This document shows, piece after piece, positions 1 through 55,831 of a stretch of DNA of 64,000 bases. Origin of the DNA: an uncultured Hormoscilla sp. GTDB lineage: Bacteria > Cyanobacteriota > Cyanobacteriia > Cyanobacteriales > Desertifilaceae. The DNA lies in NCBI GenBank assembly GCA_963921275.4, contig OZ001293.3, positions 5,376,001 to 5,440,000 on the forward strand, in the 5' to 3' direction. The notes beneath the pieces are model-generated. The model was not told the origin of the DNA and ran no database searches. It was given only the letters and a program-made list of their open reading frames with translations. The position numbers were made by a program, and so were the translations under genes. Numbering within the stretch: the first letter of the stretch is position 1; every line of letters starts with the position of its first letter.

Positions 1-2007
1 ACAGGATTATCCGCTGATTTTTGTGGATGTAAATTACTCCGGACACCTGTGGATGTATCGGGAAATCAGCGATCGCAAACAGACGGAGTCGGCATTGCGG
101 GAAAGCCAGGCGCGATGGTACAAACTGATTAATAACACCGCTGACGGCATTCTGGTGGTGAACCGGGAGGGAATAATTCGCTTCGTCAACCCAGCGGCAG
201 AAATTCTCTTCGGTTTCCTGGCGAAAGAACTTCTGGGAGAATCATTTGGCATTCCCTTAGAAACCATAGATCGATGGCGAGATTTCCATCATGCAATCAG
301 ACTGCGGCTGGATCACTTTAGACATGCGGGTCGTGGCAATTAACTGGGAGAGCGAACCAGCTTATCTCGCTTCTTTGCGGGATATTAGCGATCGCAAGCA
401 AGCGGAAAAGGAACTGGAACAGGCTAAGGACCAACTCCAGGCTGTCTTAGATGCCGTGCCCGGCCTCGTTTCCTGGATTAGTTGTCCAAACAAAGAAGAT
501 TTAGAGCGCCTGGAATACCTTGGGGTTAACCAACATTTAGCCACTAGCTTCAACCTGGCACCAGAGGCATTTGTCGGTCAAAAGATTTGCTTTCTGAAGA
601 ACCGCACTCAGTTTCCCAAATTGATTCGCCAGTTTTTTGAGTCTGGAGATGAGCATATCTCCCAAGAAGTTACTCTATTTGTAGATGGTAAGCTTCGCAA
701 CTATTTAATTGTGGCTCAGAAGTATCATCAAGGTAAGGCAGCCGTATCCGTAGGGATTGATATTACTGGGCGCAAACAAATAGAATTAGAACTGACTCGG
801 TCGAAACAGTGGCTGCAATATTTACTCGCTTGTAGCCCTGCCGCGATCTACAGTCGCCAGCCGACTGGCAATTACCGCACTAATTTCATCAGCGAGAATG
901 TAGCATCTATGTTAGGGTATGAAGCAGCAGAATTCATGTTAGACAACAGCTTCAGGCTCGATCGCATTCACCATGACGATCTAGAACATATTTTAACCAA
1001 TTTATCAAGGGCATTGCCACGAGGTAATCATAGCCACGAATATCGTTTCCAGCATCAGAATGGCAGCTATCGGTGGCTGTACGAATAATTTAAGCTAGTC
1101 CGGGACACTGAGGGAAAGCAGAGAGAAATAATTGGTTACTGGGCAGACCGAAGAATTGCTCAAAGCTTCCCTAGAAGAGAAAGAAACCCTGCTCAAAGAG
1201 ATTCACTACCGTGTCAAAAATAACCTCCAGATTATCTCCAGCCTACTGCGGTTGAAATACCGAAAAATTCAGGACCAAGAAGCTCTAAAAGCCTTTACAG
1301 AGAGCCAGAACCGGATGCAAGTAATGGTCCTAGTTCACGAGTAGCTCTACCAATCTGATAATCTAGCAGACATTAACTTCCCAGAATATATCCAAATTTT
1401 GGTAGAGAAACTGTTCCGCTCCTACGGCGCGCGTGGTTTAACCTTTAAGGCAATACTCCGGACAGTTTTTAGACCCTATTTCGACTACAACACAAGGGTT
1501 GCAGCCAAAAGCGCCTTATTTTTTTCAATGTCTGCCCCAGGGCTAACTTGCCTAAAATTGCTCTATCGAGCAAAGGCTGACGCTGCGATGCGCGAGGGGT
1601 AGTGCGAGTAGCGCGCCCCGAGTGCATCGCAAGGCTTGCAGCTACGTACAGCCAAAACGGTCCGGACTATTGTTAAGGTAAACATAGAAAAAATATCACT
1701 GGCAATTGATACCGCCATTCCCTGTGGCTTGATCGTCAACGAGCTAGTTTCCAACTCCCTCAAGTACGCCTTCCCAGAGGGTCGCAGCGGGTGGATTTGC
1801 ATTAGCCTGACCAACAGTGACTCGAATGGGTATATCCTCAGCATCAACGATAACGGGGTGGGCATACCAGCAGAGTTCGATTGGACTCAGACCAAATCTC
1901 TGGGCTTGCAGCTGGTGCGCAAACTGACCAACCAGCTAGAAGGTGAGATTTCACTCGCTCGCAGCCAGGGGACTGAATTTAGACTGATATTTAGTAAACT
2001 AACATAG
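1..2007 (+). pseudogene. PAS/PAC sensor histidine kinase (HisKA_2 type), fragmented; 5' end outside window
   Basis: ORF pieces 23-343, 291-1088, 1132-1344 and 1636-2007 carry PAS repeats, an H-box ([17 protein letters not shown]) and HATPase motifs (NELVSNSLKYAF, DNGVG, SLGLQLV). Frameshifts, in-frame stops at 1086 and 1342, and a MITE at 1451-1672. Confidence 0.9.
1451..1672. mobile_element. 222-bp MITE with ~19-bp imperfect TIRs and 6-bp TSD
   Basis: TIRs CAATACTCCGGACAGTTTT / AAAACGGTCCGGACTATTG; TTAAGG duplicated at 1445-1450 and 1673-1678; contains a hairpin element at ~1585-1630. Confidence 0.85.
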
Positions 2008-4541: not shown

Positions 4542-4781
4542 TAGTTGATAGTTGATAGTTGCTAGTTGATACCTTGGTTCCCAGAGGGAGTACGCGGCAG
4601 TGCCTTCCGCGTGCCGCGTCCTTCAGGACAAGAGCACGCGGAAGGTGCTGAGCTTTCGCCACGGACAGCTCTTGTCGCCCTCCGGACGCCTCGGACAGGC
4701 GAAACATCCTATGCAACGGATTGACAAAGAGATACTTTGAGAGTAATACCTATGAGGTAATATAATTCTCAGAAGAGGAAA

Positions 4782-14151: not shown

Positions 14152-15534
14152 GGTTCTTCTCAATCTAGTATGCTAAAATAGGTCTTGAAGTTGATGCGCC
14201 CGCTCAACGGGAGATCCTGAAAACCGGAAAACCTTTTCCAGCTTGACATTCAGCAACTAGCTAGTTGTGGTATAATATAGATGCGCGAAAAAACAGGGAG
14301 AATTTATAAGATGCCACGCTCGAATCTAAAAATACTAACAACATTGTTAAACATTCCAGAGGTGAAAGTTGTCGGGTATACTGAGACTCATTTAACAGAA
14401 GTGATGATGACAATTGAGGCAGAAAAAAAAGAAGCAATTTGCCCTAGATGTCATCAAAAAAGTCTTGCATCAGAACCATAATTATTTAATTAAGGATTTG
14501 CCCTGGGGAGAAAAAAAAGTTTTTCTCAAAATCAATCGCCGTGCGCTCGCTGTTTGAAACCGTGAGAAATTGTCATATGTAGAAGGTCGGCGTAAATGTA
14601 CGAAGAGACTGGGAGAACAAGTGGTTCGAGAAGTATTAAATGGGGATATTATTAATGTAGCGCTTCGGTATGACTTAAAAGAATCTGAGGTTCAACAAAT
14701 GCTATCTGGACAGGTGAAAATTGAACCGAACTAAAAAAGCTAGGGATCGATGAAATTGCATTGGTAAAAGGACAAGGTAATTATTTAGCTGTTTTAGCCG
14801 TGTCTCCTGGGAGCGCTATTCGCACTACCCAGGAGACGTGGATGTTGAGAATAGCAAACTTCTGGAAATAGTGAAGTCTCGGCGACAAGAAGATCTGCGA
14901 GAAGTCTTGCTATCATGGGGTCCCGAGGTGTTGAATGGTATTGAAGAAGTGAGTATGTGGAAACCGTATCAAAGTTTAGTGGAAGAATTGATGCCTAATG
15001 CTGAAGTTATAGCTGACCGTGTGACTAAGCAAGTAAATGAAGAGCTAGATAATTGTCGAAAACAAATCAAGAATGAAGCTAAAAAACTTAAGAGAAAGTC
15101 AGAAAAAGAAGAGATATCGTCGGTATTAAATAAAAGGAAAGCTCATAAAAAATCAAGAAAAATTTAAAGAAGAACAAGAAATTAAGCTGAAATAAATTCA
15201 AGAAAAAATTCCTAAATTGGGAAAAATGCACCGAGGAGCAGCTACATATATGAGAGGTCCGAAAAGTCGGAAAATCCTACCTTACAAATCCTCGATTGGA
15301 TCCTAGAGGCAAGAGAGGATTTTCCCGTGTGAAGACAATTATTCGATGGTTCGGAGAAATTGTAGGTGATTTTGAATCGGGGACAACTCAAGGGACTGTG
15401 TCAGGAATAAATAACCGTCTCAAGTTAATCAAACGTAAGGGATATGGATTCAGAAATCTGGAAAATTTTCGCTTGCGTAGTCTCCTTTCCTGGTGCTTTT
15501 AGCCTCAATCTAGCATACTAGATTGAGAAGAGCC
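14152..15534 (+). mobile_element. ISL3-family IS, degenerate
   Basis: 24-bp TIRs GGTTCTTCTCAATCTAGTATGCTA / TAGCATACTAGATTGAGAAGAGCC; CPRC finger, LGIDEI, GINNRLKLIKRKGYGFRN; no TSD seen. Confidence 0.9.
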
Positions 15535-17139: not shown

Positions 17140-17319
17140 ACTTGATGGTATAAATTTATTTTATATTATGTTCGCTTGCAAATCCAATGAATGTTATAAA
17201 TAGGCTATAACGGGTGCGATCTTAATACCATTTTGAAAAAAAATTGACAATTGTTTAAGCCTTATCATATTAGTCGGTTTTAACCGACTTTAGCTTTTAG
17301 CCGGGGGTTTGAACCCTCC

Positions 17320-17402
17320 GTGTCTCGTGGGTAGTGCGAGTACGATGTCCCCGGGGTAGTGCGACTAGCGCTCCCCGGGGACATCGAGCGACCACGAGAC
17401 AC
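17320..17402 (-). repeat. Two-level nested hairpin element inside a REP-like host repeat
   Basis: Outer arms GTGTCTCGTGG/CCACGAGACAC; inner arms CGATGTCCCCGGGG/CCCCGGGGACATCG at 17343-17386. Confidence 0.85.
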
Positions 17403-17416
17403 GAAAGGCGGGCTAA

Positions 17417-27327: not shown

Positions 27328-27714
27328 TCACAACGATACCACAAATAACTTTTTCTCACGTTCGGCTGCAAAAGCCAGACAAGCTTTGATATCTTCTGAG
27401 CTGGAGAGTACGAAGTTCTATGAAAATAGGACCTATCCTAAAAGCTGAACCCCTTGCTCCTAATTAGGAGCCCGCGAATTGCTGCATATAGGTCTCTCGG
27501 GCCCAAACCCGCTTCCATGCTTGAGCAGTTCCCCAAAGAACTTCGCACTGTCCAGTTCTGAGGTAAGTTCAGAAAAATCTTCCAGAATTTCCACTTCGGT
27601 CATGCCACCTGCCAGATATTCCAAAATGTCGTATACGGTGATTCGCATCCCCCGAATACAGAGCTTTCCACTGCGTTTTCCAGGCTCAATTGTGATAATG
27701 TCTTGGTATTCCAT
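27328..27714 (-). pseudogene. DUF433 antitoxin-like gene split by a MITE
   Basis: PGKRSGKLCIRGMRITVYDILEYLAGG...ELTSE [MITE] SEDIKACLAFAAERE. Confidence 0.88.
27401..27555. mobile_element. 155-bp MITE with 19-bp TIRs and 7-bp TSD
   Basis: CTGGAGAGTACGAAGTTCT / AGAACTTCGCACTGTCCAG; TTCTGAG duplicated at 27394-27400 and 27556-27562. Confidence 0.9.
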
Positions 27715-28238
27715 TAGATATTACACTGCATTTTGCGCTCTAATACTATTTCCTCATCTGTCAAGGGTGTCAGGTCAAAATGGACGAGCCACCTCAATAT
27801 CTGTCGCCCAACCTCCAGTTGCTCTGGGGTGGGCAGCTTATCAAAAGAATTAAGAATTTCTTCAGCTAAAGCGGTGTCTCCCGAGAGATCGATGTCTCCC
27901 GAGAGATCGATCTCTCCTGGGGCGAGGTTTCTCCTGGTCGCTCGATGTCCTCCGAGGCGAGGTGTCTCCTGGGGCGAGGTATGTCTCTGGAGCTCGATGT
28001 CTCCACCAGAGCGCTAATCGCACTACTCCGGAGACATCGTAATCGCACAAAAGGGGACATACCTCGCGCCTTACGCACTACCCAGGAGAAACCTCGCGCC
28101 TTACGCTCAAAAGGGAGGACATCGTAACCGCACTACCCAGGAGAAACCTCGCGCCTTACGCACTACCCAGGAGACATCGTATTCGCACTATTTCGGAGAC
28201 ATCATATTCGCACAAAAGGGGAGACACCGCGCAGTCAT
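27715..28238 (-). pseudogene. Small hypothetical gene interrupted at codon 3 by the nested repeat
   Basis: ATGACTGC[360 bp]TTTAGCTGAAG reads MTALAEEILNSFDKLPTPEQLEL when the insert is removed. Confidence 0.6.
27871..28230 (+). repeat. Eight-level nested hairpin element
   Basis: Eight left arms pair in reverse order with eight right arms around a central AGCGCTAATCGCACTA loop (28010-28025). Confidence 0.92.
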
Positions 28239-28293
28239 TTGTTTTACGGTTGGAACCATCCTTATGGGTATTCTATCACTAAAACTATGACAT

Positions 28294-29130
28294 TTACCTT
28301 TTGTAGGCAACCTGAAAAGCTGACAGATATGAGAGTTGGATACTATTGCCGCAGTTCTTCTCTAGGGTTTCCCTCAAACCGGCAAACAAGGAATCACGCT
28401 GCTGGGACTCTAGGTTGATGTAGGGGGAGTAGGTACTCAACAGCGCCAGATAATCATCGATGCTATAGGTCACTTCACAGGGTAAATCTTCGGACTGGAA
28501 GTCCTGGAAATAACCTGAGTCCTTTACCTTCTGGACAAACTGGTTCAGGTTGGCTAACTGAGTTTTTCTGTCTTCATATCGTCCCAGAGATGGAGCATGG
28601 AGCTGATAGACTTCATCCAACATTTGGTAAACTTCATAGGGGGGCTGGGCTGACGTGTTCCAGAGTAAAATTAGAGCACCTCTTGCTTTTAAGGCCGCAG
28701 TAACTTTGGGATACCCTCTGACAGGGGCAACCCAATGAAAAGCAGTTGCTGCTAGCACCCCATGGAATCTCTCTGGCTCTAGCTCCCACTCCTCAAAGGC
28801 GGTATTCTTAATCTCGACATTGGCATACTGGGCCGAGTTTTGTCGCGCTAGCTGACAAGCTGACTCACTTGGTTCTAGACAGACCATTTGAAAGCCTAAT
28901 TGCCCAAAGGCTTCCGTTGCATTCCCGGGACCGCATCCTATTTCCAAAATGTTGGCTTCCTCTGGGAGTTGCGCTAAGGACACTGCCCGTGAGATCATAG
29001 TTTTCGGATAGCGTGGTCTGGTCCTGTTGTAGGCAGAAGCTACGGCACTGTACCAGCTTTTTATTTGTTCTGAGGTCCAGGTATCCGCTACTTCCCTGTA
29101 CCAGTTTTCAGCTTGTGACGAATCTTTCAT
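28294..29130 (-). CDS. Class I SAM-dependent methyltransferase
   Basis: RPRYP, ILEIGCGPG, ATAFHWV. Confidence 0.9.
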   Translation of the reverse strand: MKDSSQAENWYREVADTWTSEQIKSWYSAVASAYNRTRPRYPKTMISRAVSLAQLPEEANILEIGCGPGNATEAFGQLGFQMVCLEPSESACQLARQNSAQYANVEIKNTAFEEWELEPERFHGVLAATAFHWVAPVRGYPKVTAALKARGALILLWNTSAQPPYEVYQMLDEVYQLHAPSLGRYEDRKTQLANLNQFVQKVKDSGYFQDFQSEDLPCEVTYSIDDYLALLSTYSPYINLESQQRDSLFAGLRETLEKNCGNSIQLSYLSAFQVAYKR

Positions 29131-29418
29131 AAATGGTTGCTTGTGAATGGTAACTACTCGTTGGCAGTCTCGGGCTGGGAACGATGATTGAGAGGCAGAG
29201 CCTCCAGTTTATGATAGCTAGGAAATGATTATACCTTGATGTCTCTGGGGTAGTGCGAATAGCGCGTCCCCTCTGGGAGACATCGAAGTTGGCAGTCTCG
29301 GGCTGGGAACGATTATTTGACCAGTCGCGTTTGAAACCTTGGTGGTAAACTGCCAGATAGCTCTCCCAGCGCAGGATTGGCATAATTTTCTACCTCCATC
29401 AACTATTAAAACAGCCTC

Positions 29419-37975: not shown

Positions 37976-39955
37976 CTATAAAGAGCACTTGGGGCGAAGG
38001 GGAATGGCGATCGCAAACTCAGTGCCAGCATCGGGGTCCGAGAGGCAGCGCAATTGCCCGCCGTGCCGATCGACAACAATCTGGTAACTAATAGATAATC
38101 CCAAACCGGTCCCCTTGCCCACAGGTTTAGTAGTGACGAAACAGTCAAATAGGCGATTCTGCACATCTGAGGGGATACCCGAGCCATTATTCTTAATTTT
38201 AATCGCCACCTGGTCAGATTCTCCCAAACTGGTACTAATCCAAATTTTACCAGGTTGCGGGGCTGATTCTCTGATAATTGTTGATGATTTAACTCCTCCA
38301 TAGCGTCAATGGCATTGAGGAGGATATTCATAAACACCTGATTTAACTGACCGGGGTAACATTCCACCAAAGGCAGTTCACCATACTCTTTGATAATTTC
38401 AATACTAGGGCGATCTGGTTTCTCCTTCAGGCGACTGTCGAGAATCATCAAGGTGCTGTCAATGCCTTCATGGAGATCGACCTGTTTCATGTCGGCTTCA
38501 TCTAAGCGCGAGAAAGTCCGCAGGGACTTGACTATCTCCCTGATGCGAGCGGCCCCTACTTTCATCGACGCCAACAGTTTAGGAAAATCGGCGAGCAGGA
38601 ATTCCAAATCTATTTCTTCAGCAGCAGATTTAATTTCTGGATGAGGGTGAGGATAATGTTGAGCGTAAAGCTGAATCATTTCGATTAAGTCGGAAGCATA
38701 GTTTGTAGCTGGGGCAATATTACCATAGATAAAGCTAGTGAGATTATTGATTTCATGAGCAACTCCAGCGACCAACTGACCCAAAGCTGCCATTTTCTCA
38801 TTCTGAACCAACTGATTTTGAGTGTACTTGAGTTCTTGCAAGGCAACTGTCTTTTCCTGGACTTGCTGATCCAATGCATCTGTATGAATAAGCACCCGAC
38901 CTGTGAGAGGACGCAGCAACAGCACTAGACCTCCAGTACCCAGGAGACTGAGAAATGCGATCGCTATGCCGACAATTACCAGTTGCCGATTGACTGGCCC
39001 ATAAAGATCCCGGCGATCGATCTTGATAGCTAGCCCCCAGTTGCTATTTTTAATTGGCTCAATGGCAAGGATTACCGTTTCTCCTGAGGCGGCGGAAACC
39101 TTTAGCAACCCCGCCTCCCGTGATGCTACGGATTTTTCTATTGCCTGCAAGATGCCTCCCGATGCCTGAACTTGATTTCGCAAAGGGAAAAACAACTGCA
39201 CTTGGTTATTATTGACAGCGCCGAGAAGGGTTTCCCCAGTTTCTCCCAAACCCGTGTAATCTGTGACAATCCTTTGCAAACCGGTAATTTTGAACAAAAC
39301 GATGTCCGTTCCCACCCGCTGTTTAGAGATTGGGTTGATAATTGGGGATCCCACCACTAAATAGGACTCACCCTCTAGCCCGATCGGTTCTTCAACCAAG
39401 GCTTTTTTAGAACCCGCTGGCAGTATCGACCAAAATTCAGATGGAATAGGCAACCCCACCTGGGCGATCTGCTTACCAGTCGCGTCGAGGCGCGTTATCC
39501 CGACAACATCCTCGGCTTGGTTAAGGGCGTCAGTCAAGATGCTGGAGACTTCTTTACCAACCTCATCCAGGTTGATGGTTCCCCTGTTGTATTCTTGCAA
39601 CATTTTACGGGCTTTAGTGCGGCTGGCGATCTGCTCGCGGTGTCTCTCGGGAGCTCGATGTCTCCGGAGAGCGCTAATCGCACTACTCCGGAGACATCGT
39701 AGGAGCACTACCCGAGAGACACCGCGGCGACATCTTTAGCTCTGGAGAGGAATTGAGCAACCGTCATGGTGCGGGTATGCAGGGCGAACTGAATATTTCT
39801 TTCCTCCTGTTTTTTCAATTGGTTGTACAGGGGCATGATGCTCATCAGCGCCACGACGGCACCCATGCCTGCCCAAAAATACCCAGATCCCAATAAAGGA
39901 TCGGAAGACGCTGTAATTGTTTCGAGTTAGTGGGATAATTGTAATTGCTTTTCAT
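37976..39955 (-). pseudogene. Membrane sensor histidine kinase disrupted by a nested hairpin insertion and frameshifts
   Basis: TM-periplasmic-TM layout, QNEKMAALGQLVAGVAHEINN; HATPase tail in another frame; 89-bp insert at 39637-39725. Confidence 0.85.
39637..39725 (+). repeat. Two-level nested hairpin element
   Basis: Outer arms GCGGTGTCTCTCGGG/CCCGAGAGACACCGC; inner arms CGATGTCTCCGGAG/CTCCGGAGACATCG. Confidence 0.9.
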
Positions 39956-40027: not shown

Positions 40028-42034
40028 ATGATATCACTTTGGCGTGAATTTCAACCCTTAGCTGCGATCGCCGTCACCTCCACTGCCACTTTTCGCCTTC
40101 AGTTTGTTACGAACCTTTGGGTGCCAGCATCTTTAGGTAATATTCCCGGGACGCAGGTTTACCAAGGTTCTCTCAAAGAACATCTTGCCACCCTGTGGTC
40201 AAACCATCGGGCTTTAATCTTCTGTCTGGCAACTGGGGCAGTTGTGCGCCTCATTGCTCCCTTGCTAAAGGATAAATCTCGCGACCCCGCTGTCATAGTT
40301 ATAGATGAAGGGGGAAAATTTGTCATCAGTTTGTGTAGCGGACATCAAGGGGGCGCTGACAAATTAGCAAGGTTAATTGCACAGCAACTGGGGGCAACTC
40401 CTATCTTAACAGGGGCATCTGCTGCCTTACAATTACCAGGAGTAGATATGCTGGGGGTTCCCTTTGGTTGGCAGCGGGGCCCAGGGGACTGGACGGAGGT
40501 AAGTGCAGCAGTTGTCAGGGGAGAACCCGTCCAGGTAATGCAAGAAGTGGGCACAACCCTTTGGCAAAAGCATCTTCCCGAAGGACATCAATTCTCTTTT
40601 CACTTGGATAATGATAAAATATCCCCCCAAGGTAGGATTTGGATTAGCCACCGCCGATTAGATCCAGAGGATGATATCCTCCAGGTACAGTGGCATCCGA
40701 GAGTGTTGTGGGTGGGAATAGGTTGCGAACGAGGAACTTCTCGTCAGCTGATTGAAAGGGCAATTACAGAAGTGATGCAGACTCATGCTTTGGCAGAAGG
40801 GGCGATCGCAGGTATTGCGACAATTGACCTAAAAGCTGATGAAGTCGGGTTGGTGGAACTCTGTCGCGATCGCCTCTTTCCCCTACGCACTTTCCCCGCA
40901 GAAGTCCTGGGTTCTGTGGCTGTTCCTACCCCTTCAGCTGTAGTCGAAAAAGCAGTAGGAACTCCCAGCGTCGCCGAAGCAGCTGCTGTACAAGCTGCGG
41001 GTGCAGAACCTTTCGATATCTCTGGTCGCTCGATGTCTTCTGGTGCTGCATCTCGTGGGAGCGCTACTCGCACTACCCACGAGATGCAGCGCGCTAGTCG
41101 CACAAAAGAGAAGACATCGTATTCGCACTACCCCAGAGACATCGAAGCATCCCTATTGGTTGCCAAGCAAATTTTTAGAACAGAAGGGGAACCAGGGGTA
41201 GTCACAGTGGCGATCGCTCAAGCTGCTGTAGAATATACAGGACGCCCAGGTAAACTATTACTTGTGGGCATCGGACCGGGGCAATTAGACCAAATCACCC
41301 CAGCTGCTCAAACTGCGATCATTAGTGCCGATGCGCTCGTCGGTTATTCTCTCTATATCGACTTAATTGCTTCTTTACGGCGTCCTGGACAAATTGTCGA
41401 AGCATTTCCTATTACACAGGAACGCCAACGGGGAGAAAGGGCGATAGAACTTGCGAAATGGGGTTTAACAGTAGCAGTAATATCTTCAGGAGATTGCGGC
41501 ATTTATGGCATGGCCGGATTAGTCATGGAACAATTGCGATCGTCCTTTTGGGATGGGAAAATCCCCATAGTGGAAGTCTTGCCCGGCATCACAGCCATGC
41601 AAGCAGCAGCAGCGAAGGTGGGTGCGCCGTTAATGCATGATTTCTGTGCCATCAGTTTGAGTGACTTGCTGACACCTTGGGAGGTAATCGAAAAGCGCCT
41701 ACACGCCGCCGCCCAAGCATATTTTGTTACCGCACTCTATAATCCCCGCTCGGCTAACCGGACTCAGCAAATAGTCACAGCCCAGCAGATATTCCTACAA
41801 TACCGTAAACCAGATACTCCTGTGGCGATCGTCCGTTCAGTTTACCGAGAATCAGAACAAATTACCCTGACAACCCTTGACAAATTCCTGGAAATTCCCA
41901 TTGATATGCTCACCACCGTGCTGATCGGCAATCAAAGTACCTACATCCACAGTGATTGGATGATTACTCCGCGCGGTTATCTATCACAAAGTTCCGCTAT
42001 TAGCCCGGGGTTCAAACCCCCGCGTCATAGCTAA
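40028..42034 (+). CDS. cobJ: CbiG-CobJ fusion (precorrin-3B C17-methyltransferase)
   Basis: ATGAVVRLIAP, GHQGGAD, VGIGCERG, SVAEAAA, VGIGPG, SSGDCGIYGMAG, HDFCAISLSD, ITPRGY; ~43-aa repeat-derived insert. Confidence 0.93.
   Translation: MISLWREFQPLAAIAVTSTATFRLQFVTNLWVPASLGNIPGTQVYQGSLKEHLATLWSNHRALIFCLATGAVVRLIAPLLKDKSRDPAVIVIDEGGKFVISLCSGHQGGADKLARLIAQQLGATPILTGASAALQLPGVDMLGVPFGWQRGPGDWTEVSAAVVRGEPVQVMQEVGTTLWQKHLPEGHQFSFHLDNDKISPQGRIWISHRRLDPEDDILQVQWHPRVLWVGIGCERGTSRQLIERAITEVMQTHALAEGAIAGIATIDLKADEVGLVELCRDRLFPLRTFPAEVLGSVAVPTPSAVVEKAVGTPSVAEAAAVQAAGAEPFDISGRSMSSGAASRGSATRTTHEMQRASRTKEKTSYSHYPRDIEASLLVAKQIFRTEGEPGVVTVAIAQAAVEYTGRPGKLLLVGIGPGQLDQITPAAQTAIISADALVGYSLYIDLIASLRRPGQIVEAFPITQERQRGERAIELAKWGLTVAVISSGDCGIYGMAGLVMEQLRSSFWDGKIPIVEVLPGITAMQAAAAKVGAPLMHDFCAISLSDLLTPWEVIEKRLHAAAQAYFVTALYNPRSANRTQQIVTAQQIFLQYRKPDTPVAIVRSVYRESEQITLTTLDKFLEIPIDMLTTVLIGNQSTYIHSDWMITPRGYLSQSSAISPGFKPPRHS
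41013..41145 (+). repeat. Three-level nested hairpin element, in frame within cobJ
   Basis: TCGA...TCGA spacing of 129 bp; core TGCATCTCGTGGG-AGCGCTACTCGCACTA-CCCACGAGATGCA. Confidence 0.88.
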
Positions 42035-42557: not shown

Positions 42558-43555
42558 ATGGCTGCGCTACCCTATGGGATCAGCCTCTACTCGCACATTA
42601 GCAGTCAGTAAGGTTGTGGCCTGGTGCAGCGGGGGAGCAGGCCCCCATGGCGCAGCTATGGACACGCTTTGCCGGAGGCAAAGCCAGAAAACGTCTACCC
42701 GATCGCGTAGCGTGGCGCAGCCATACGAGTAGTGGAGCGTATGCACGACCTTACCGTACAAAAGCTAGAGCTTGGTCGCTGTAGAACTTCTTTATGGCTG
42801 CGCCCCCAGCGCAGCGCTATGGGTAAAGTGATGAGGGACTGAGGGGGTGAGGGGGTGAGGGGGTGATGAGAAAATGTTAATTTTTCGTTGATTCACAGAT
42901 ATTTTAAAATGTCGGCGTATTATTAATGGACCGATGCTCTAGAAGCTCAAGTTACTGCGAGGGCAGCTATGGCTGCGCCCCCAGGGGAGATATCTCTGCT
43001 CCTTGCTCTTGTCCCAAGGTCCATAGGGCACACAGGAGACATCGCAGCGCTATTGGTGCTAATTAAGAAGTGTGCCTGCTAGATGGCTCTTCCGTGATTA
43101 TGAGCGACACAACATGGCTGCGCCCCAGCGCAGCGCTATCAACAATCTTAAGGCTTATCGGAAACACTTCATACAACTAAAGGGCAGCATCACAAGACAA
43201 TTGCGTGATAATATATTAAATCACGCAATTGTCTTGTGATACTGGGTTGTGGTTTTCGTTTGAGCGCTCTTCGTCTTTATGTTTAGCTTGGATGAAAGTA
43301 TTGATTGCACCATTCTGCAGTTGTGAACTAGCTCCTGCACGACAGACAAAAGTATACAACCAGGAGCAAAAGTGACTGCTCTCAGGGGTAAGAAGTATTG
43401 CTGCGCCACGCTACGCGATAGGTAAGTTAGGTATTGGCGACCAGATTATTAGCCTCTACAAACCCAAAAAACGTCCCAATCACATAAGTGCTCAAGAGTG
43501 GGCAGATTTACCTGATACTGTGCAGGTATGGCTGCGCCCCCAGCAGAGATATCGA
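42558..43555. repeat. Cluster of ~24-27-bp dispersed repeats ATGGCTGCGCC...
   Basis: Copies at ~42558, 42702 (reverse), 42794, 42969, 43114, 43400 and 43528. Confidence 0.75.
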
Positions 43556-51447: not shown

Positions 51448-52105
51448 GGGTGTGGTCAAAACCCGTCGATCTAACATGGGCCTTCCCAGTCGTCGGATCC
51501 CCCTTGCGATGTCTCGCGAAGGCCACGCTAAAAGCACTACCCAAGAGACATCGCACCCCCCTTAAAAAGCCTTAAAAAGGGGGGCTTCCATAGCCCCCCC
51601 CCTCGTTCCCTGGCTCTGCCTGGGAACGTAAGGGGGGGTTTGGGGGGGATCCCTATGCAACAAATGCATGACCACACCCGTTCGCAGTTAGGGTACATTC
51701 GCAGTTCGGGCACATTCGCAGTTCGCCCCGACCGGGCAGTTCTAGGGTACTTTTACCTCAACCGGCACCTATTAGCTGCTAACCGGTGCCCCACTGTTGG
51801 GGTTTAAAACCTCTCTGTTGGGGTTTAAAACCTCTCTGTTGGGGTTTAAAACCTCTCTGTTGGGGTTTAAAACCTCTCTGTTGGGGTTTAAAACCTCTCT
51901 ATTTTGGTTTTAAACCTCTCCATTGGGGTTTTAAACCTCTCCATTGGGGTTTTAAACCGGTGTGGTCTTGCGCACGTTGGCAACCGTTCACCGTGAGCTG
52001 TAAGCCGTTCGCCGTGAGCTGCGAGGGAGTTCCCCGTTTCCTGTGAGCCGTTCGCCGTTCTCCGTTAAGAGTTCCCCACTAATACAACCACTTTTGACCA
52101 CACCC
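51448..52105. mobile_element. 658-bp non-autonomous element with 14-bp TIRs and 9-bp TSD
   Basis: GGGTGTGGTCAAAA / TTTTGACCACACCC; GGTCGCTTC duplicated at 51439-51447 and 52106-52114. Confidence 0.9.
51794..51958. repeat. 21-bp tandem repeat, 8 units
   Basis: CTGTTGGGGTTTAAAACCTCT five times plus three variants. Confidence 0.95.
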
Positions 52106-55565: not shown

Positions 55566-55611
55566 TATCTAGCGGTTTCAAATCCTTCACTACGCTTTTA
55601 ACCCGCCTTCA

Positions 55612-55651
55612 GTGTCTCGTGGGAGCGCTACTCGCACTACCCACGAGACAC
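55612..55651 (+). repeat. Single hairpin element in a REP-like host repeat
   Basis: GTGTCTCGTGGG-AGCGCTACTCGCACTA-CCCACGAGACAC. Confidence 0.9.
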
Positions 55652-55831
55652 CGAAGGTTCAAACCCCCGGCTAATAGCTAAAGTCGGTTTTAACCGACTA
55701 ATAAATTTTGAAAAATTTTCCTCTACGTGAAATTAGATCGTAATCAATTTAATGTTTTATTGTGGACCATTTTTTCAAAATGGTATTACAATAATGGGTT
55801 GTCGGCAACCAGCGCAATTCACAATTAGCAA

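Follow-up and report, generated by a model that had tools for sequence, protein, structure and literature searches.

How can eight copies of a small hairpin come to lie inside one another at a single site of a bacterial genome? This question is raised by positions 27871–28230 of the window, which is the whole 64,000-nt stretch of Hormoscilla DNA that we analysed. The window belongs to contig C1 of the genome called G000 here, and G001–G004 are the same-genus genomes with which it was compared. The original prediction for this locus was that a non-coding element had inserted seven times in succession into the loop of its own family, which would imply a trans-acting enzyme that recognises this loop. 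Our analysis leads to the conclusion that the nest at 27871–28230 is real and of recent origin, that it is eight levels deep, and that it is made of a mobile hairpin specific to the genus.

Architecture and authenticity of the nest

The nest is 360 bases long and has an intact core of 45 nt, with seven pieces to its left and seven to its right. Its limits can be placed equally well at 27872–28231 or 27873–28232, since GC is repeated at the join. It lies between two minus-strand genes that are outside the element: a DUF433 gene (27460–27714; PF04255, E = 1.9e-17), whose start is ~157 nt from the nest, and a class I methyltransferase gene (28294–29130; PF13649, E = 2.4e-12), whose stop is ~63 nt away. 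The DUF433 gene has an altered C-terminus, and a stretch of it recurs on C1 near 1848600.

Read along the plus strand, the nest opens with the left arms and junctions of level 1 (27871–27889, CGGTG type) and level 2 (27890–27907, CGATG type). These are followed by the left arms of level 3 (27908–27921), level 4 (27922–27942, a longer CGAGG type with a TCGCT junction), level 5 (27943–27956, CGATGTCCTCC type), level 6 (27957–27973, CGAGG type) and level 7 (27974–27994, CGAGGTATGTC type with an AGCT junction). Level 8 (27995–28039) is the 45-nt core and the only unit with an intact loop (AGCGCTAATCGCACTA, at 28009–28024); on its minus strand, GTAG is followed by an inner stem of 5 bp that includes a T-G pair. 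The right halves then follow in reverse order: level 7 (28040–28067; loop remnant, AAAAG variant and arm), level 6 (28068–28097; GCCTTACGCAC remnant and arm), level 5 (28098–28124), level 4 (28125–28152), level 3 (28153–28179), level 2 (28180–28204, with its terminal G changed to A) and level 1 (28205–28230). From level 1 to level 7, the outer levels add 45, 43, 41, 49, 41, 47 and 49 nt. All predicted arm coordinates were thereby reproduced, as were the single intact loop and the gain of 41–49 nt per level.

Folded as DNA, the region forms one long hairpin of −104 kcal/mol (z = −13), and 0 of 100 shuffled sequences were as stable. The mirror order in which the arms had been predicted to pair scored 94, against a mean of 63, and only 4 of 40,320 permutations reached this score (6 of 40,320 in an ungapped version). 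Hence, the possibility that the arms pair no better than in shuffled order can be dismissed. The score of the tandem order was below the mean and was reached by 32,800 of the 40,320 permutations, in line with the expectation that tandem slippage cannot give a mirror order. The mirror order was not the sole top ordering (the maximum score was 96), because levels 2 and 8 and levels 4 and 6 are of near-identical types and the end of level 2 is mismatched.

An assembly artefact or tandem slippage might nevertheless be suspected, as no contig spans the whole nest and slippage adds or removes right halves in some nests. Contigs of the X1, X3 and X4 runs match 27528–28037 (X4 to 28018), 28077–28154 and 28161–28700 with 0 differing letters, although none of them reaches across the full nest and these runs may be the assembly's own source. 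The X4 contig additionally matches 28040–28089. Moreover, a separate deep nest (C1:6747911) occupies the same site in G000, G002, G003 and G004, so that such deep nests cannot be put down to a single assembly. Given the mirror order, these exact contig pieces, the nest common to four genomes and the exact empty site described below, an artefact or slippage has a negligible chance of explaining the nest.

A genus-specific hairpin family

The usual unit of the family is 44 nt long, with a 14-bp covarying stem and a loop of the form AGCGCTA-NNN-GCAC, ending in TA or AA. Among 329 terminal hairpins, 129 were 44 nt and 33 were 41 nt long. Covariation was validly tested on 170 distinct units chosen by their loop alone, since a set of 173 units had been filtered on pairing. 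Arm positions paired in 83% of cases, compared to 61% with the right arms shuffled (the highest of 1,000 shuffles gave 63.5%). The left arms vary, with 88 of them among the 173 units. Perfect stems measured 14–15 bp in 72 of 194 loop matches and were longer in 13 of 194, while the mismatches in the arms of the pairing-filtered set showed no G-U bias (20 GT vs 22 AC). The GTAG strand of the unit has a bulge and a T-G pair, which gives it a REP-like shape. GTAG itself is inside the 14-bp stem; 28 of 173 units have lost it, and the sister family of 41 nt does not have it. Sister families with different loops have the same kind of termini as the 44-nt unit.

A genome-wide search of the kind that the original prediction proposed gave 644 right-half signatures in 489 clusters of G000 (7.03 Mb; 4,738 HIP1 sites on C1), compared to 48 in a reversed control. 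One signature was present in 378 clusters, two in 85, three in 16 and four in 7; clusters of five, seven and eight signatures were each found once. The seven-signature cluster is the nest at 27871–28230, where the signature pattern missed one of the halves. Contig C3 of G000 (31 kb, 17.6% GC) is without a HIP1 site and is probably foreign to this organism.

Elsewhere in the window, two- and three-level nests of the same family are found at ~39614–39725, 41012–41145 and 17318–17403 (minus), the first and last of which have alleles that are empty in relatives. Single units or sister-loop hairpins are present at ~4600–4650, 29240–29290 (minus), 42990–43045 (minus), 51500–51550, 55610–55660 and 1590–1640 (minus).

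The loop pattern was counted 175, 26, 54, 52 and 80 times in G000–G004, respectively, and hence occurs in all four of the same-genus genomes, compared to a single lone match among 56 other genomes. In a collection of named records, 48 of 48 loop matches came from Hormoscilla. An Rfam scan of 27700–28400 gave no match up to E = 1. A viral sequence search for the element also gave no match, and a metagenome search gave five, of which one is a true nest and four look like chance; a phage or metagenome carrier was therefore discarded. A replication-strand bias of the copies was likewise not visible, and GC skew was flat. A literature search, with most subscription papers and all supplements outside its scope, returned no paper on this Hormoscilla hairpin family.

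Empty and filled sites

The comparison with related strains that had been suggested for this locus revealed an empty allele in G001, G002 and G004, relative to which G000 has exactly 360 extra bases and has lost none. Similar comparisons were possible for 84 clusters of G000 with an alignable ortholog, of which 38 were similar, 24 differently filled and 22 empty; they extended over ~2.4 Mb of G004 and G002 and some shorter loci, which is part of those genomes. At C1:3298278, the copy is two-deep in G000 and single in the relative (locus L096). Nests of at least three levels are also present in G002, G003 and G004, and one nest common to four genomes differs among them in its number of halves.

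These results leave little doubt that we are dealing with a mobile, self-nesting non-coding hairpin element. The predicted mobility and landing in the loop of the element's own family are supported by the empty sites and by C1:3298278 and its relative, but this support does not extend to seven separate insertions at the present locus. The nest is probably neutral in its effect, given its intergenic position and its absence from three relatives.

Junctions at single and nested sites

A systematic search among orthologs and paralogous repeats produced 20 pairs of empty and filled sites. The net gain was the unit plus one base in 15 of these pairs. T stood two bases before the unit in 14 of the 20, and for 11 of these 14 the empty site has G directly after the join; in ~4 of the pairs, the base after the target G was overwritten. 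Across the genome, 96 of 133 single 44-mers and 29 of 30 41-mers have T at −2 of the loop strand. Where the T is one-sided, it follows a C in 60–67% of the copies. A at +2 was found in 36 of 133 single 44-mers. The polarity was opposite in 12 of the 133 singles, and 25 of the 133 showed neither. Mutually exclusive TT and AA ends, which we had considered, were unsupported by the genome-wide end counts. The outermost join of the eight-deep nest (TAAA^GC) is an exception to the T rule, with its GC repeated and no T tail. The motif GCGATCGC was at the join in 0 of the 20 empty sites, and two sites were in CGATCG.

No fixed target duplication was found at the empty/filled pairs of the element, and its joins are ragged, whereas other repeats in the same comparison show duplications of 8–9 bp. 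This is relevant to the explanation that the element is a MITE of a DDE transposase family, or the target of an IS110-type recombinase, moved via its terminal inverted repeats. Several loop families indeed have similar termini, and G000 has four IS110-family matches. However, the ends of the element are asymmetric and, as its left arms show, variable, no IS110 locus is enclosed by it, and among the 30 of 111 flagged clusters examined, a screen for repeated flanks recovered passengers in IS copies but no coding parent of greater length. This explanation is already largely refuted, and we consider it very improbable. Two MITE-like families with 8–9-bp duplications, one with GGGTGCAT and one with GGGTGTG termini, vary among strains at L064, L116, L126, L132 and L139.

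Nested joins centre on AGC^GC. Among 649 right halves, 178 have one form, 38 its mirror form, 334 are intact and 99 are unclassified. The nested form predicted from the single-site rule was found 0 times, compared to 148 times for the commonest nested form. Nested joins thus never follow the single-site rule, which argues that at least two routes are needed. Moreover, an unrelated repeat family (GTTCCCAGG...GGGAAC) and HIP1-type 24–34-mers insert in the same loop, so that the loop may be a generally fragile site. The claim of a trans-acting enzyme specific for the loop is weakened by these unrelated repeats, and also by the finding that the element does not flank any Y1, IS110 or Cas1 gene. 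The HIP1-type short repeats in the loop resemble SDR5 and are outside the Nostocaceae. Between G000 and its relatives, 24 nt is the commonest indel size (34 of 470). We regard the unit, its mobility, the junction pattern and the loop hotspot as established.

Remodelling of resident copies

Copies already in place also differ from one another. Four copies carried as passengers of IS elements have stems that are perfect, changed in one arm, or compensated in both arms. Between orthologs, there is a double compensatory change at C1:2719742 and an inverted loop at C1:2525677, and loops have been swapped for others of the same length. The nest at G000 C1:3722478–3722687 has eight right halves, including a tandem duplication, which indicates that slippage also acts on nests. 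A truncated unit at 14776–14835 of the window rides in a repeated IS-like element that has six copies in G000, three of them truncated alike.

Parts of the eight-deep nest are also found elsewhere. Its pair of levels 3 and 4 recurs almost letter for letter at C1:3299978, and a ~50-nt block of levels 6–7 recurs at C1:5203516. Junction letters vary among orthologous copies of one nest, which weakens the idea that these letters are cassettes carried by the donor. The recurring blocks and variable junction letters suggest that pre-formed blocks or later conversion contribute to the nest, and the inner units are unlike the outer ones, suggesting donors from elsewhere. Judging from the sequence, the eight levels need not equal seven single events at 27871–28230. 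Insertion into the element's own loop stands as predicted, but one-by-one addition at this site is no more than a possibility, in view of the recurring blocks and the differences in junction letters between orthologs.

Possibly, host repair alone produced the family. Nucleases would then cut hairpin loops and release fragments, which would be captured at breaks or copied in by conversion over short homology. Such repair would account for the landing of unrelated repeats in the same loop, for the ragged junctions, and for the conversion, inversion and correction of resident copies; the nested join is nearly uniform, as if conversion had spread a few founders. However, it leaves unexplained the fixed 44-nt size and the conserved loop, as well as the loop-oriented T at −2 and insertion at homology-free sites. 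We consider host repair alone unlikely.

Candidate enzymes and the route of movement

The search for a Y1 enzyme covered five genomes that are 93–97% complete, each of which has Y1 genes or fragments. In G000, the frames at L001 and L003 look intact and those at L002, L006 and C1:5108342 are broken; the four relatives gave 22 Y1 matches. None of 26 Y1 loci, nor of 6 further loci (three of them repeats), has a loop of the element within 1.5 kb, and the Y1 loci inspected adjoin other repeat families or none that we recognised. A cognate RAYT was therefore rejected after the Y1 searches of five genomes and the flank scans. An IS110 recombinase was also rejected as the mover, because the four loci in G000 are not associated with the element: one has a single loop match nearby and none is enclosed by it. 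The searches gave no Cas1 match. Of the HUH/Y1 (RAYT), RT, IS110 or recombinase genes that the original prediction suggested looking for, none of the Y1 or IS110 type was found flanked by the element.

A Y1-HUH family of ~250 aa occurs in 37 of 201 genomes, often tail-to-tail with a gene that we take from its motifs to encode a GUN4 domain (L181–L187, L191, L201–L229). A conserved GTGCCAGGTATCG motif is found ~90 nt past the stop of this GUN4-like gene, and the stretch before the gene's end is hypervariable and of low complexity. In four Hormoscilla copies (L181, L182, L183 and L191), the motif is folded in a hairpin downstream of Y1, CGATACCTGTC...GACAGGTATC, with element-like ends. This Y1 family was rejected as the mover, since the G000 copy is broken and without the downstream hairpin. 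We also set aside a likeness to GGGAGGTGTCC in other genera, which by our reading is part of the coding sequence for the GUN4 tail.

The copies are likely moved by an enzyme whose gene lies elsewhere. The fixed 5′ T after C, the ragged 3′ join without duplication, the REP-like inner stem and the lack of G-U bias in the arms, which is what would be expected of DNA, are together best, if weakly, fitted by Y1-HUH activity. Our tentative preference is therefore for a model that may well prove wrong in part or in whole, in which the 44-nt hairpin is moved in trans as single-stranded DNA by a putative non-cognate Y1-HUH enzyme of the RAYT or IS200 type. We infer all of the enzyme steps. A copy would fold on single-stranded DNA and be nicked a short distance upstream, in most cases at a C^T that is two bases away from the stem, so that the hairpin would leave with a short 5′ tail. 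The 5′ T would then be joined to the 3′-OH of a break in the target, and the ragged 3′ end would be joined via pairing of 1–2 bases with the target G, which would leave no fixed duplication. Most often, the target would be a resident copy with its loop opened at AGC^GC, where arm homology might allow single units or ready-made nested blocks to be copied in. Each insertion destroys the outer loop and supplies a fresh one, so that nests would grow from inside. Arm-to-arm correction, loop inversion, short conversions and slippage would subsequently remodel the nest.

The Y1-HUH model is consistent with cutting by TnpA-REP at C|T, as given in passages of PMC8266576, and with the excised REPINs in parts of PMC3116915, which are hairpins with a 5′ tail. 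Several observations count against it. No cognate gene was found, GTAG is dispensable, and C^T joins are found on the strand that lacks GTAG, while in the sections of PMC8266576 on TnpA-Ec this enzyme acts on the REP strand and not on its complement. Moreover, targets of the element open at C^G or N^G and not at C^T or C^A. The outermost TAAA^GC join of the nest, the 12 of 133 singles of opposite polarity, the 25 with neither polarity and the need for a second route to nested joins also count against the Y1-HUH model.

An alternative source of mobility might be the reverse transcriptases, of which G000 has 93 matches, nearly all of the group II intron type. An RNA intermediate is also said to have been proposed for SDRs. 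An intron RT would copy a nuclease-trimmed hairpin RNA of the GTAG strand into breaks by template jumping and joining at microhomology, and its cDNA would drive the conversions. This would account for the ragged ends and for the failure to find an enzyme gene next to the element. The inner T-G pair is compatible with an RNA that corresponds to the GTAG strand, and the ends are at the stem base, as perfect stems exceed 15 bp in 13 of 194 loop matches. According to parts of the respective preprints, a single base pair suffices for template jumping by such RTs, which also add A without a template (10.1101/792986) and perform microhomology end joining (10.1101/2022.03.14.484287). For the ends and the one-base join, the fit of the intron RT is nearly as good as that of Y1-HUH. 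However, the arms lack a G-U bias, and 27% of the 44-mers have C and 46% of the 41-mers have T as their first tail base, which differs from the order in which such RTs add untemplated bases (A>G>>C~T; 10.1101/792986). The RT counts in G000–G004 (93, 3, 79, 8 and 46; 2 in G005) also do not track the loop counts, a comparison confounded by fragmentation. In addition, the sole retron-like RT is truncated at its 5′ end, with no element seen upstream. We see movement by an intron RT as a rather doubtful possibility.

At G000 C1:1227184–1227904, the retron-like RT is preceded by the duplicated end of a glycosyltransferase; at 4242210–4243383, a YMDD-type RT interrupted by a stop is found next to genes that look phage-tail-like. 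A retron source of the element was rejected, because the VTG-bearing RT is truncated.

Both enzymes could also be accommodated in a broader explanation, in which the element would be a micro-element that is SINE-like or depends on a helper, and of a kind not described before. Lacking both a gene and a cognate transposase, it would borrow an enzyme (a group II intron RT or a non-cognate HUH) that copies it into breaks; it would home to its own loop, and free single-stranded copies would rewrite resident ones. This is possible, and we advance it with reserve.

Comparison with known small repeats

The element resembles SDR1–8 of the Nostocaceae (Elhai and colleagues, 2008; Genome Research 18:1484) in being a tiny, non-coding, structured repeat of a filamentous cyanobacterium that was recently mobile. 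SDR units are 21–27 nt long. Nesting in its own copies is a further likeness, as self-nesting has reportedly been described for Nostoc SDR1 and SDR4. The nest in Hormoscilla differs, however, in its depth of eight and its readable junction rule. In passages of PMC2884548 the SDR units are ~20 nt, in contrast to the 44-nt unit with a 14-bp stem. SDR-like repeats were not found outside the Nostocaceae according to part of PMC5861425, whereas the present element is outside this family and all its named records are from Hormoscilla. Furthermore, SDR5 inserts between bases 3 and 4 of HIP1 according to excerpts of PMC4390886, and this rule does not hold for our element, with GCGATCGC at none of the 20 joins.

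The REP, REPIN and BIME repeats moved with RAYT (TnpA-REP), as characterised in portions of PMC3116915, PMC8266576 and PMC3733652, offer another comparison. The element shares with them a hairpin unit in hundreds of copies, a GTAG that adjoins a bulged stem in one of the strands, a 5′ join of the C^T type, and insertion into or beside existing copies. It differs from them in that a REPIN consists of two inverted REPs and the element of one hairpin, in that its GTAG is stem-internal and dispensable instead of unpaired and 5′, and in that no RAYT gene flanked by the repeat was found at the 26 and 6 loci of five genomes. At the 5′ join of the element, C^T is frequent, on the strand that lacks GTAG; the targets open before G.

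With IS200/IS605 elements (IS608 and ISDra2, as treated in part of PMC8266576), our element shares the lack of target duplication and asymmetric, structure-based ends. It differs in having no fixed tetranucleotide target, a ragged 3′ join and no coding parent in the repeated-flank screen.

MITEs of DDE transposons are non-coding and passive and have inverted termini. The element is alike in these respects, but it is far smaller, with variable termini and no fixed duplication. In the same screen, the 30 flagged clusters examined gave no coding parent with the same termini. In summary, the element works like the Nostoc SDRs and the REPINs, yet it fails the defining tests of both.

Implications

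How bacterial repeats of less than 50 bases move is an open question beyond the RAYT-REP systems. The Hormoscilla family offers a defined substrate of 44–47 nt, a preferred target, dozens of sites that can be compared in their empty and filled states, and a short list of enzymes as candidates, and its junction rule makes the mechanism of its movement testable. Movement by an RT would make it a bacterial SINE-like element, whereas movement by a non-cognate Y1 protein would widen the range of DNA that HUH transposases can mobilise. The nest itself is a clear record of near-minimal selfish DNA.
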